Shown: piece by piece, positions 33,262 through 35,622 of the stretch
Layout of the letters: every line of letters begins with the position of its first letter
Position numbering within the stretch: the first letter of the stretch is position 1
From: Oceanispirochaeta sp.
GTDB taxonomy: Bacteria > Spirochaetota > Spirochaetia > DSM-2461
Assembly (NCBI GenBank): GCA_963663385.2
Contig: CAXXXD010000003.1
Coordinates: 640,001 to 704,000, forward strand
Length of the DNA: 64,000 nt
Direction: 5' to 3'
Notes under the pieces: generated by a model
Told to the model about the DNA's origin: nothing
The model's input: only the letters and a program-made list of their open reading frames with translations
The model's database searches: none
Translations under genes and position numbers: made by a program

Positions 33262-33408
33262 TATTTTACTCCTCTATTATAATTGGTATTTCCTGTTTAA
33301 TACAGGGATTTGGTTATATCTGCTTCAATAAATCAGTTTCGAAAGATGATTCATTGACTTCACAGAAATCTGATAGGATACTCTGTAAACATAAAACAGG
33401 AGGCTTAA

Positions 33409-33486
33409 ATGGGGGATTCTGAACAAAGCGTGTTAATCGGCTGCATTGCAGACGACTTTATCGTGGATACGGCGGTAGAGGAATAA
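33409..33486 (+). pseudogene. Truncated N-terminus of a four-carbon acid sugar kinase (DUF1537/OtnK-like)
   Basis: AGGAGG RBS, then MGDSEQSVLIGCIADDFIVDTAVEE*; LIGCIADDF is the family N-terminal motif (normally continuing TGA-x-D). Confidence 0.55.
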
Positions 33487-33492
33487 CTTACA

Positions 33493-34068
33493 ATGAACAG
33501 GCTCCCCGTTGAATTTTACCTGCAAACACCCGATCCTGTCGCCCGGGAACTACTGGGAAAAATCCTCTTACGCCGACTCCCGGACGGTACGGTACTTTCC
33601 GGACGGATCTGTGAAACCGAAGCCTACAGCCAGGAGGATCCCGCCTCTCACTCCTATCCGGGTCCGACCAGACGGAACGCCCCCATGTTTGATAAGGGCG
33701 GAATCGCCTATATTTACCTTATCTATGGAATCCATCACTGCTTTAATGTGGTAACAGGACCGGCCGGGGAGGGAAGCGCCGTGCTGATCCGTTCCCTGAT
33801 TCCCCTGGAGGGAGCAGAGGCAATGCGGCGGAACCGGGGAGTACACAGAACAGCACGGGATGCTTCCCTCTGTGACGGTCCGGGGAAAATCTGCCGGGCC
33901 CTGAATCTTGATCTGGGCTGGAACGGGCATAATCTGTCCGAAGAGCCTCTCAGGATACTGGACGACGGCTCTACCGTATCTGATAAAGATGTGAAACTGA
34001 CTCCCCGTATCGGGATTACAAAAAATGCGGATCAGCTCAGACGGTATCTGTGGGTTCAGGGTGATTGA
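33493..34068 (+). CDS. DNA-3-methyladenine glycosylase (MPG/AAG family)
   Basis: ARELLGK, ETEAY, DPASHS, YIYLIYGIHHC, AVLIR, GPGK, RIGI. Confidence 0.95.
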   Translation: MNRLPVEFYLQTPDPVARELLGKILLRRLPDGTVLSGRICETEAYSQEDPASHSYPGPTRRNAPMFDKGGIAYIYLIYGIHHCFNVVTGPAGEGSAVLIRSLIPLEGAEAMRRNRGVHRTARDASLCDGPGKICRALNLDLGWNGHNLSEEPLRILDDGSTVSDKDVKLTPRIGITKNADQLRRYLWVQGD

Positions 34069-34104
34069 TGTTCTTACGAAATTCATAAATATATATAAAT
34101 CTAC

Positions 34105-34133
34105 TTGACCAGTTTTTACAGCAGGAGTATCAT
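34105..34133 (+). promoter_or_regulatory. Sigma70 promoter of the Ala-leader/aminotransferase unit
   Basis: TTGACC-N17-TATCAT; predicted +1 falls at or near the leader ATG (34140). Confidence 0.7.
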
Positions 34134-34139
34134 TGGCCA

Positions 34140-34226
34140 ATGAAATTGCGAGAACAACTGTCTATTAACAGTCATCTCAACGCAGCAGCGGCGGCAGCGG
34201 CCTCTTATGGAGGAATCGCCGGCTGA
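34140..34226 (+). CDS. Putative attenuator leader peptide with 7 consecutive Ala codons
   Basis: MKLREQLSINSHLNAAAAAAASYGGIAG*; GCA GCA GCG GCG GCA GCG GCC at 34182-34202. Confidence 0.8.
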   Translation: MKLREQLSINSHLNAAAAAAASYGGIAG

Positions 34227-34246
34227 GCTGTTAACTAGTTAATTAT

Positions 34247-34281
34247 GCCGCGGTTCCTGAGGGAACCGCGGCTTTTTTTTT
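34247..34281 (+). terminator. Attenuator terminator upstream of the aminotransferase
   Basis: GCCGCGGTTCC-TGAG-GGAACCGCGGC followed by 9 T, lying between the promoter and the CDS. Confidence 0.88.
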
Positions 34282-34332
34282 ACCAGAACAGCAGCGGTTC
34301 CCAAAGGACTCAGGCAGCACAAGGAGTGTATC

Positions 34333-35622
34333 ATGCGTCGAAACATTGTCTGGGAGGGAGCCGATCAGCTCCATTACGAAATTCGTGAAATTGTGGGGAC
34401 CGCCCACGGTCTTCAGCGTCTTGGAAGGGATATTATCTTCGAAAACATTGGAGACCCCGTGCAGAAAGGGGAGGAAGTCCCTCTCTGGATTCGGGATATT
34501 ATTACGGGACTGGCATCTGAAAGCAGCAGCTATGCCTACACCGCTACCGAAGGGGATCTGACTACCCGCCGGTATCTGGCTCAGAGTGTAAACGGCCGGG
34601 GAGGCTGTCAGATTACACCGGAGGATATAATCTTTTTTAACGGACTGGGGGATGCGGTTTCAACGGTATTTGCCTTTTTAAAGAGGGAAGCCCGGGTTAT
34701 CGGCCCTTCTCCGGCCTATTCCACGCTCTCATCGGCCGAAGCGGCTCATTCAGGCTATGCCCATACCACCTATACCCTTGATCCGGATAATAACTGGATG
34801 CCCGATCTGGAGGATCTGGAAAACAAGGTCCGCTATAATGACTCCATTGCGGGGATACTGCTGATCAACCCGGATAACCCTACCGGAGCTGTCTATCCGA
34901 AAGACATACTGCTGAAAATTGTGGATATCGCCCGGCGGTACGACCTTTTTGTTATCTGTGACGAAACCTATGCCCATATTGTCTATAACGGAGCGGACAG
35001 CTGCCACCTCAGCGAAGTGATCGGGGACGTTCCGGGAATAGCCATGCGGAGTATCAGCAAGGAGTACCCCTGGCCCGGCGGACGCTGCGGATGGATAGAG
35101 GTTTTCAACCGGGACAAAGATGAGAATTTCAATGAGTTTATCCAGACTCTGGTTAATGCCAAACGTCTGGAAGTCTGTTCCACAACCCTCCCTCAGCTCT
35201 CCATCCCCCTTGTGTACAGTGATCCCCGTTACTGGGAGCACCTGGAAAGGCGGAACAGAATCTTCGGAGAGCGGGCGGCGGAAGCGGCGGAAATTTTAAA
35301 TGCCGTACAGGGTGTTCAGGTGAATCTTCCCAGAGGCGCTTTCTACCTGACCGTGCTCCTGGATAAGGAGCGGATCCGGAACTTTATCCCTCTGCCCATG
35401 AGACGGGATGTGGAAGAGTATCTCAATGAGAAGATGGGACATGCCCCGGCAGATAAAAAGCTGGTCTACAACCTCCTGGGCGCTGTGGGGATCTGTACGG
35501 TTCCTCTGAGCGGATTCTGTTCAGATCTGCCCGGGTTCCGCTGTACTCTGCTGGAACAGGATGATGCCAAACGCCTTCAGATCTGGCATACCCTTGCGGA
35601 TGCCCTGAAGCGGATGCTTTAA
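34333..35622 (+). CDS. PLP-dependent class I/II aminotransferase, AlaA-like (probable alanine transaminase)
   Basis: YEIR and NIGDP N-terminal motifs resemble AlaA (YDIR, NIGNP); INPDNPTG, DETY, SISK (PLP Lys), GRCGW. Confidence 0.8.
   Translation: MRRNIVWEGADQLHYEIREIVGTAHGLQRLGRDIIFENIGDPVQKGEEVPLWIRDIITGLASESSSYAYTATEGDLTTRRYLAQSVNGRGGCQITPEDIIFFNGLGDAVSTVFAFLKREARVIGPSPAYSTLSSAEAAHSGYAHTTYTLDPDNNWMPDLEDLENKVRYNDSIAGILLINPDNPTGAVYPKDILLKIVDIARRYDLFVICDETYAHIVYNGADSCHLSEVIGDVPGIAMRSISKEYPWPGGRCGWIEVFNRDKDENFNEFIQTLVNAKRLEVCSTTLPQLSIPLVYSDPRYWEHLERRNRIFGERAAEAAEILNAVQGVQVNLPRGAFYLTVLLDKERIRNFIPLPMRRDVEEYLNEKMGHAPADKKLVYNLLGAVGICTVPLSGFCSDLPGFRCTLLEQDDAKRLQIWHTLADALKRML

Follow-up and report, generated by a model that had tools for sequence, protein, structure and literature searches.

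A probable alanine-specific leader-peptide attenuator before a PRK06855 aminotransferase gene in Oceanispirochaeta and its relatives

The leader and the gene it precedes

In the genome of Oceanispirochaeta sp. (assembly GCA_963663385.2), a gene for a class I/II pyridoxal phosphate (PLP) aminotransferase is preceded, on the same strand, by a promoter, a 28-codon open reading frame (ORF) with seven consecutive alanine (Ala) codons, and an intrinsic terminator, in that order (Table 1). The locus lies in a 64,000-nucleotide stretch (contig CAXXXD010000003.1, positions 640,001 to 704,000 of the forward strand), which we refer to as the window and whose numbering is used throughout unless a contig is named; other loci and genomes carry our own numbers (L and G). 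A first-pass annotation of the window had read this arrangement as an attenuator in which the ribosome, by stalling on the Ala codons, senses alanine and controls an AlaA-like aminotransferase. The analysis described here supports that interpretation with four amendments: the leader ORF probably has a leaderless start, the enzyme is a member of PRK06855, there is a precedent in mycobacterial whiB7, and the switch would be kinetic. We consider it probable, and hold with some confidence, that the element is a ribosome-mediated leader-peptide transcription attenuator specific for alanine.

Table 1. Features of the leader and of the gene behind it, in window positions
Position	Strand	Feature	Basis or remark
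34105..34133	+	sigma-70-type promoter: -35 TTGACC (34105-34110), 17-nucleotide spacer, -10 TATCAT (34128-34133)	10/12 match
34140..34226	+	leader-peptide ORF, 28 codons, MKLREQLSINSHLNAAAAAAASYGGIAG	ATG 6 nucleotides past the -10 box
34182..34202	+	proposed regulatory codons: seven consecutive Ala, GCA GCA GCG GCG GCA GCG GCC	mixed synonyms
34192..34206	+	segment 1: 5' strand of the 1:2 hairpin (last Ala codons and next 4 nucleotides), pairs with 34210-34225	RNAalifold
34211..34224	+	segment 2: putative antiterminator strand AGGAATCGCCGGCT	can pair with segment 1 or segment 3
34224..34226	+	leader stop codon	segment 2 ends in it
34247..34257	+	segment 3: terminator 5' arm GCCGCGGTTCC	
34262..34272	+	segment 4: terminator 3' arm GGAACCGCGGC	
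34273..34281	+	T9 tract of the intrinsic terminator	
34294..34302	+	segment 5: GCGGTTCCC	can pair with segment 4 in read-through transcripts
34321..34326	+	Shine-Dalgarno sequence AAGGAG of the aminotransferase gene, 6 nucleotides before the ATG at 34333	sequence reading
34333..35622	+	putatively regulated gene: class I/II PLP aminotransferase, 429 amino acids, NCBIfam PRK06855	profile matches

The sequence elements named by the first-pass annotation, namely the promoter, the ORF with its seven Ala codons of mixed synonyms, the terminator, an antiterminator strand and a downstream segment able to capture the terminator's 3' arm, are all present. The promoter is the top promoter-like site on the + strand between 32500 and 36500, and its -35 and -10 columns are kept in an alignment of 15 sequences. 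The terminator stem (34247-34272) consists of 11 pairs, 9 of them G-C, and folds at -23.6 kcal/mol (z -6.46), a value matched by 0 of 200 shuffles.

The layout is unique in the genome. On both strands of its 5.3 Mb there are 60 runs of at least five GCN triplets, 23 of them in stop-to-stop frames of at most 60 codons, and a terminator-like hairpin within 120 nucleotides after such a short-frame run occurs at this locus only. A covariance model of the leader found one true copy in the genome. Of 37 other genomes of the family, 12 gave a strong match, a single one each, and it was always located at the aminotransferase gene; no second Ala leader was found by this model in its own genome or in the 37 others.

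Additional matches to the covariance model were inspected and rejected. In the same genome, L105 proved to be a plain gene-end terminator, L106 the same terminator read on its reverse strand, and L107 a different upstream ORF (uORF); the weak ones elsewhere in the family (L119-L121) are gene-end terminators or an unrelated short ORF with no Ala run. L107 (24.6 bits; L107:1501-1664, on genome G000, contig C2, positions 93600-93763, + strand, outside the window) is a 27-codon ORF, MFNFMAVLIAEISIRDSYVPNASAFPV, behind a TTGACA promoter-like site; it is followed by a strong terminator and then by a gene for a product resembling an ATP-binding cassette (ABC) exporter. It has no Ala run, and from its layout may be another leader-peptide attenuator.

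Conservation of the Ala-run ORF in the Spirochaetia

The first-pass annotation had looked to conservation of the Ala-run ORF upstream of orthologous genes, and such conservation is what we find. In a set of related genomes, 23 of 41 have an orthologue of the aminotransferase gene, and 22 of these loci have upstream sequence; a short Ala-run ORF with a terminator precedes the gene in 15 of the 22, at three more, all of one genus, the Ala codons are scattered in what is a weaker form, and four have none. In the class as a whole, an orthologue was detected in 67 of 401 genomes at E values up to 1e-100, and 65 loci were analysed, leaving out a match that starts at the end of a contig (L023) and a partial one (G052). 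An ATG-initiated ORF of at most 60 codons with at least four consecutive Ala codons is present at 49 of the 65 loci, and it is combined with a terminator-like hairpin at 48, representing 15 of 17 families and 23 of 27 genera. Dinucleotide-preserving shuffles of the same regions gave the ORF once in 1300 and never the ORF with a terminator. The reverse complements gave 9 and 0, the nine ORFs arising because a GCN repeat also reads as GCN, in a shifted frame, on the other strand.

These counts bear on the simplest dismissal of the leader, which is that a chance ORF happens to stand before the ordinary terminator of the upstream gene. It is true that no terminator belonging to that gene, which encodes 3-methyladenine glycosylase (33493-34068), lies before 34247. 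The ORF and terminator are nonetheless kept together behind different upstream genes in 15 families, they were absent from all 1300 shuffles, and their combination occurs once in the genome, so that we regard a chance arrangement as scarcely credible.

What is conserved in the leader is not a peptide sequence. When 13 close leaders are aligned, codons 1 to 14 prove free to vary in all but their number; in the last four Ala codons only the third position changes, G and C being invariant; and a conserved block, GGAATCGCNGGCTGA, is found. Across the class the leader peptides are unrelated outside the Ala run, and the Ala codons in the leader ORFs are GCC (90), GCA (89), GCG (84) and GCT (20). At one locus (L009:2836-2976, - strand) a 1-nucleotide insertion after the Ala run shifts the C-terminal frame (..AAAAAAFLKRNRRLT) and places the stop codon 4 nucleotides further downstream, and the nucleotide block GGAATCGCAGGCTGA is kept despite the change of frame; the block after the run is therefore constrained as RNA and not as peptide.

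This pattern fits poorly with the idea that the ORF is an independent small gene, encoding an Ala-rich micropeptide or a small RNA, that merely adjoins the aminotransferase gene. Such a gene would account for the element having its own promoter and a strong terminator, at which most transcripts would end (at 34281). It would not account for a peptide that is unconserved except for its Ala run, nor for the frameshifted C-terminus at L009 with its nucleotides kept, nor for the constant placing of the element, in two phyla (see below), immediately upstream of this gene and in its orientation. Segments 2 and 5 are moreover complementary to the arms of the terminator, which a plain small gene has no need of. 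We judge an independent small gene very unlikely.

Where the leader peptide starts

The position of the start codon was addressed with a frame-blind search for a promoter-like site followed 4-9 nucleotides later by an ATG, itself 15-100 nucleotides upstream of a GCN run. Of 40 promoter-anchored ATGs identified in this way, 39 share the frame of the run, and at the 38 loci that offer a single candidate all do; if genera are taken once each, the frame agrees in 16 of 16. The chance expectation is one third for each. The full layout, TTGAnn, 16-18 nucleotides, a -10 box, 4-9 nucleotides (mode 6-7) and a start codon, occurs at 43 of the 65 class loci. A Shine-Dalgarno sequence before the uORF is not conserved among these loci; the AGGAG in the window overlaps the promoter spacer and is absent in most relatives. 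Because the ATG of the uORF follows the -10 box by only 4-9 (mostly 6-7) nucleotides, the leader peptide is probably translated from leaderless mRNA, and its most probable starting point is the 5' terminus of the transcript. A strict scan of the whole genome (TTGACN, 16-18 nucleotides, TANNNT, 5-8 nucleotides, ATG, short ORF, terminator) returned this locus and one other, with a 10-codon ORF, and we therefore make no claim that leaderless attenuators are common in this genome.

Four loci from one genus of the same family (L138, L140, L141 and L142) have no Ala leader at the aminotransferase gene. At these loci the ATG of the aminotransferase gene itself lies 6-7 nucleotides after a promoter of the form TTGACC, 18 nucleotides, TAnnnT. 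The enzyme mRNA thus looks leaderless and the attenuator seems to have been lost, an arrangement that fits the use of leaderless initiation in the group.

In the window, transcripts of the glycosylase gene would enter the leader and end at the attenuator terminator (33493-34246). On such read-in transcripts the uORF would not be 5'-terminal.

Complementary segments of the leader RNA

The first-pass annotation had paired a segment beginning at 34211 with the 5' arm of the terminator, as an antiterminator, and had assigned to 34294-34302 the capture of the freed 3' arm. Both pairings stand up to quantitative comparison. Segment 2 is the best 14-nucleotide partner of the terminator 5' arm in the whole leader (-17.9 kcal/mol), and a fold of 34203-34261 gives the 2:3 helix at -20.2 kcal/mol (z -2.41). 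In the 13 close relatives, 94.4% of the cells of this helix are paired, compared with 35-51% in slid controls; for the terminator the figure is 98.6%, with two pairs showing compensatory changes. The 4:5 helix (fold of 34259-34310) has -23.3 kcal/mol and z -4.93, with 0 of 200 shuffles as good. On the 15-sequence alignment, 75.2% of its cells are paired (33-50% when slid), seven of its nine pairs change on both sides, and its covariation score of 0.382, compared with 0.256 for shuffled alignments, was reached in 0 of 500 shuffles. The 1:2 hairpin appears in the RNAalifold consensus of the 13 close leaders (columns 53-68 with 72-87), in which the terminator is the second predicted helix. The leader RNA is predicted to form four successive, mutually exclusive helices of similar strength (1:2, -20.5; 2:3, -20.2; 3:4, -23.6; 4:5, -23.3 kcal/mol).

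The same complementarity was surveyed at the 41 loci having both a promoter-anchored ORF and a terminator. The best 14-nucleotide partner of the terminator 5' arm begins 2-9 nucleotides past the Ala run, or lies in a downstream relay hairpin, at 31 of the 41; over all 41 the median for the best partner is -16.4 kcal/mol. When post-run segments and arms were permuted among 17 genus representatives, none of 2000 permutations gave a mean as low as that of the cognate pairs (-1.351 kcal/mol per nucleotide). The weak cognate pairings belong to loci that carry an extra relay hairpin.

Six loci of one family (L020, L146, L151, L153, L154 and L159) show what this relay looks like. Here there are two hairpins. 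The first lacks a T tract, and its 5' arm is the pairing partner of the post-run segment; its 3' arm in turn has complementarity to the 5' arm of the second, the actual terminator. The design is a relay of six segments instead of four. Two hairpins are also found at L124, L125, L132 and L137.

Ribosome position and a model of the switch

From these features we infer the following course of events. Transcription would begin with the A of the ATG at 34140 or a nucleotide adjacent to it, and a ribosome would read the 28-codon leader from the 5' end. With Ala-tRNA plentiful, the ribosome would reach the stop codon (34224-34226) and cover segment 2 (34211-34224), segments 3 and 4 would pair, and RNA polymerase would terminate at the T9 tract (34273-34281). 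With Ala-tRNA scarce, the ribosome would stall early in the run of seven Ala codons, at one of the first four or five, melting the 1:2 hairpin and leaving segment 2 free to capture the newly emerging segment 3 ahead of the synthesis of segment 4. No terminator would then form, the aminotransferase gene (34333-35622) would be transcribed, and segment 5 could pair with the freed segment 4. In the event of no translation at all, 1:2 and 3:4 would both form and transcription would stop.

Several observations weigh against this model. The first concerns the energetics, for which folds were computed at equilibrium with ribosome footprints masked and the whole terminator present at the same 41 loci. 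The terminator wins in every ribosome state modelled, its median pair probability being about 0.98 if the ribosome is absent or has reached the stop codon and 0.94-0.96 if it sits on the Ala codons, and only 3 of 41 loci switch. A thermodynamic switch is thus rejected, and the decision would have to be kinetic, as it likewise is in the trp attenuator. If the transcript is cut after the 5' arm, median pairing of that arm in the 41 loci is predicted to be 0.70 with no ribosome, 0.69 with the ribosome at the stop codon and 0.90-0.92 with it on the Ala codons. The modelled effect is modest and in the expected direction, and a gain of at least 0.3 is seen in only 14 of the 41 loci.

The remaining difficulties are of several kinds. 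A search of public sequencing runs for this stretch listed 8 entries, none of them recorded as RNA. The antiterminator has no two-sided covariation among the 13 close relatives. The 1:2 hairpin (34182-34230), although predicted at -20.5 kcal/mol, has a z of only -0.45, with 56 of 200 shuffles folding as well, and is the weakest part of the layout. Sixteen of the 65 orthologous loci have no Ala run; five of these are degenerate, with scattered Ala codons (L019, L021, L022) or AAAGA (L127, L139), and at several run-less loci the gene directly follows another gene or has its own promoter. The enzyme does not belong to the equivalog family named alanine aminotransferase, and the genome encodes an alanine dehydrogenase as well (both discussed below). 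Finally, 10 of the 41 loci have no better partner for the terminator arm than the Ala run itself.

This last count, together with the placement of the GC-rich repeat in predicted helices, is what one would cite in favor of an untranslated RNA switch, be it a riboswitch, a T-box-like tRNA sensor or a protein-binding leader, with the GCN repeat serving as a structural or binding element. Other evidence points to a translated repeat. The ATG keeps a fixed spacing from the -10 box and shares the frame of the run at all 38 single-candidate loci and in all 16 genera, and variation within the run falls on third codon positions. There is no conserved aptamer-like core, as the leaders of different families cannot be aligned outside the Ala run and the stems, and no Rfam family matches at E values up to 10. 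An RNA switch that is never translated therefore seems to us a poor candidate, and we return to the translated leader.

The enzyme encoded behind the leader

The protein scores 631.7 bits against NCBIfam PRK06855 (cut-off 443), a family whose name is generic, and it matches PF00155, the class I/II PLP aminotransferases. The first-pass annotation had called the enzyme AlaA-like, which is right in that AlaA is its nearest solved relative and needs amending in that the protein is no AlaA equivalog. The closest solved relatives are alanine aminotransferases, namely the E. coli glutamate-pyruvate aminotransferase AlaA (4cvq, E 7.6e-41) and 1xi9 (5.8e-36). The equivalog model for alanine aminotransferase, PRK08363, gives 167.8 bits against a cut-off of 534, and the link of the regulated enzyme to alanine is drawn through its similarity to AlaA; production of alanine from pyruvate is the activity that this similarity suggests. 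An alanine dehydrogenase gene is present on contig C1 of the same genome (G000, 486767-487867, - strand; TIGR00518, 513.1 bits, cut-off 391.85). Since alanine dehydrogenase also interconverts alanine and pyruvate, the aminotransferase need not be the only route to or from alanine.

A second leader design in another phylum

A wider survey took in 80 orthologous loci from named genomes. The leader is present in the Spirochaetales-type records, and no leader was found in most of the surveyed records from Desulfobulbia, Balneolales, Planctomycetota, Hydrogenedentota and Leptospiraceae. A distinct Ala-rich ORF, with a GGCCATGG-type terminator behind it, is seen in several records of Desulfuromonadales or Thermodesulfobacteriota. 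In the Desulfuromonadales-type order, 142 of 151 genomes have an orthologue, and 30 loci (L165-L194) were listed and analysed, taking at each the ORF with the longest Ala run, so that true starts are uncertain. An ORF with a run of at least three Ala codons and a terminator precedes the gene at 26 of the 30 loci listed. Runs of at least five occur at 19 of these 30, compared with 0 of 600 shuffles and 8 of 30 reverse complements. It appears from these sequences that there are two unrelated leader designs, both Ala-rich, before the same enzyme family in two phyla.

The Desulfuromonadales-type leaders often share a peptide pattern of approximately AARA, followed a few residues on by a run of 4-8 Ala and then by Cys-rich tails, and their terminator is the GGCCATGG-type palindrome. 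A Shine-Dalgarno-like AGGAA stands before the ORF at L075 at least (the same locus as L165), and these leaders are therefore not leaderless.

Comparison with known systems

When 33400-35000 was run through cmscan against Rfam with E values allowed up to 10, unrelated families alone came up, at chance level and all far short of their gathering scores; the T-box and the leader families Trp_leader, His_leader, Leu_leader and Thr_leader were not among them. Full-text literature searches, which excluded subscription-only papers and supplements and so leave an earlier description possible, found no cis-acting Ala-run attenuator before an aminotransferase gene. The text of Naville and Gautheret 2010 (PMC2965389) does not contain the words "alanine", "Ala" or "aminotransferase", and Brewer et al. 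2021 (PMC8632094) describe uORF motifs for Cys and Phe in a text that does not contain the word "alanine". The first-pass annotation had known of no characterised Ala-specific leader attenuator. As far as these searches reach, this stands for attenuators acting in cis; an "Ala leader" acting indirectly, through a transcription factor, has been published for mycobacterial whiB7 (PMC10274678).

The whiB7 leader is the closest published case found (PMC10274678; bioRxiv 10.1101/2025.10.10.681568). As described there, its uORF, which the authors call the "Ala leader", is enriched in Ala codons and controls a terminator, and whiB7 raises the level of the alanine aminotransferase AspC by way of WhiB7, an effect that is indirect and broadly responsive. 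The two systems have in common an Ala-enriched uORF at which stalling blocks a rho-independent terminator's formation (by our model, in the present case), and an output in whiB7 of more AspC, which closes a feedback loop on alanine. They differ in that whiB7 controls a transcription factor activating both aspC and resistance genes, through a longer uORF of mixed composition that responds to many amino acids and to antibiotics, whereas here a pure Ala run stands in cis directly before the aminotransferase gene with no regulator between. The whiB7 arrangement proper, a uORF and terminator upstream of a WhiB7 gene, is not the one found here, the downstream gene being an aminotransferase.

The whiB7 work also provides the best argument for a different reading of our leader, that it is a general sensor of translation stress (antibiotics or general starvation) to which the Ala run lends no specificity for alanine. 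In that work the whiB7 uORF, Ala-enriched as it is, responds to loss of many amino acids and to ribosome-targeting drugs (PMC10274678), and in the present leader stalling anywhere in the first 20 codons or so would also be expected to free segment 2. Set against this, the uninterrupted Ala run is the only conserved coding feature of the leaders (49/65 loci), the other codons being variable; the unrelated leaders of another phylum are Ala-rich too; and the target is neither a stress regulator nor a resistance gene but codes for an aminotransferase, and the nearest solved relatives of this enzyme make alanine. We consider a general stress sensor improbable, and alanine shortage the likelier signal.

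A likeness of another kind is to the mycobacterial polycysteine-encoding leaderless short ORFs, which are reported to attenuate downstream cysteine genes (bioRxiv 10.1101/834739). Common to both, if our leader is indeed leaderless, is an mRNA that begins with a short ORF containing consecutive codons for a single amino acid; the mycobacterial ORFs are in a different phylum and their amino acid is cysteine. The likeness is drawn for the architecture only.

Taking the parts together, we think it rather likely, if less than certain in each detail, that Ala-tRNA charging is sensed directly by a cis-acting, Ala-specific attenuator before PRK06855 aminotransferase genes in mostly anaerobic bacteria of at least two phyla (the Spirochaetia and the Desulfuromonadales-type order); that PRK06855 is the regulated alanine-forming enzyme; that the spirochaete leader lies at the 5' end of the transcript with no ribosome-binding site; and that a fifth segment locks the read-through fold. 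If this is true, alanine joins the amino acids sensed by leader-peptide attenuation, and the widespread and generically named PRK06855 family gains a functional assignment as a biosynthetic alanine aminotransferase. The leaders would also supply dozens of natural variants (leaderless starts, relay hairpins, the fifth segment) for studying how such switches are constructed. It would suggest, too, that these bacteria really do experience alanine limitation as part of their physiology, which agrees with the mycobacterial whiB7 work.

The classical leader-peptide attenuators are those of E. coli trpL, hisL, leuL, thrL, ilvL and pheL. With them the present leader shares a short ORF with a run of cognate codons, an intrinsic terminator before the gene, overlapping helices (2:3, 3:4 and, here as a weaker prediction, 1:2), and a stop codon whose position would let a ribosome ending translation there mask segment 2. 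In the classical cases as in this one the antiterminator is weaker than the terminator, so that the choice between them is kinetic in the former and would be so in the latter. The present leader differs from the classical ones in showing no similarity to any Rfam leader family, in using Ala codons, and in having as its target a single aminotransferase gene and not a pathway operon. It differs further in its leader ORF, which has no Shine-Dalgarno sequence, begins with an ATG 4-9 nucleotides past the -10 box and is probably leaderless, and in its fifth segment, which can pair with the 3' arm of the terminator. It is apparently an undescribed variant of a textbook mechanism, new, as far as our searches show, in its specificity, its breadth and the details of its design.

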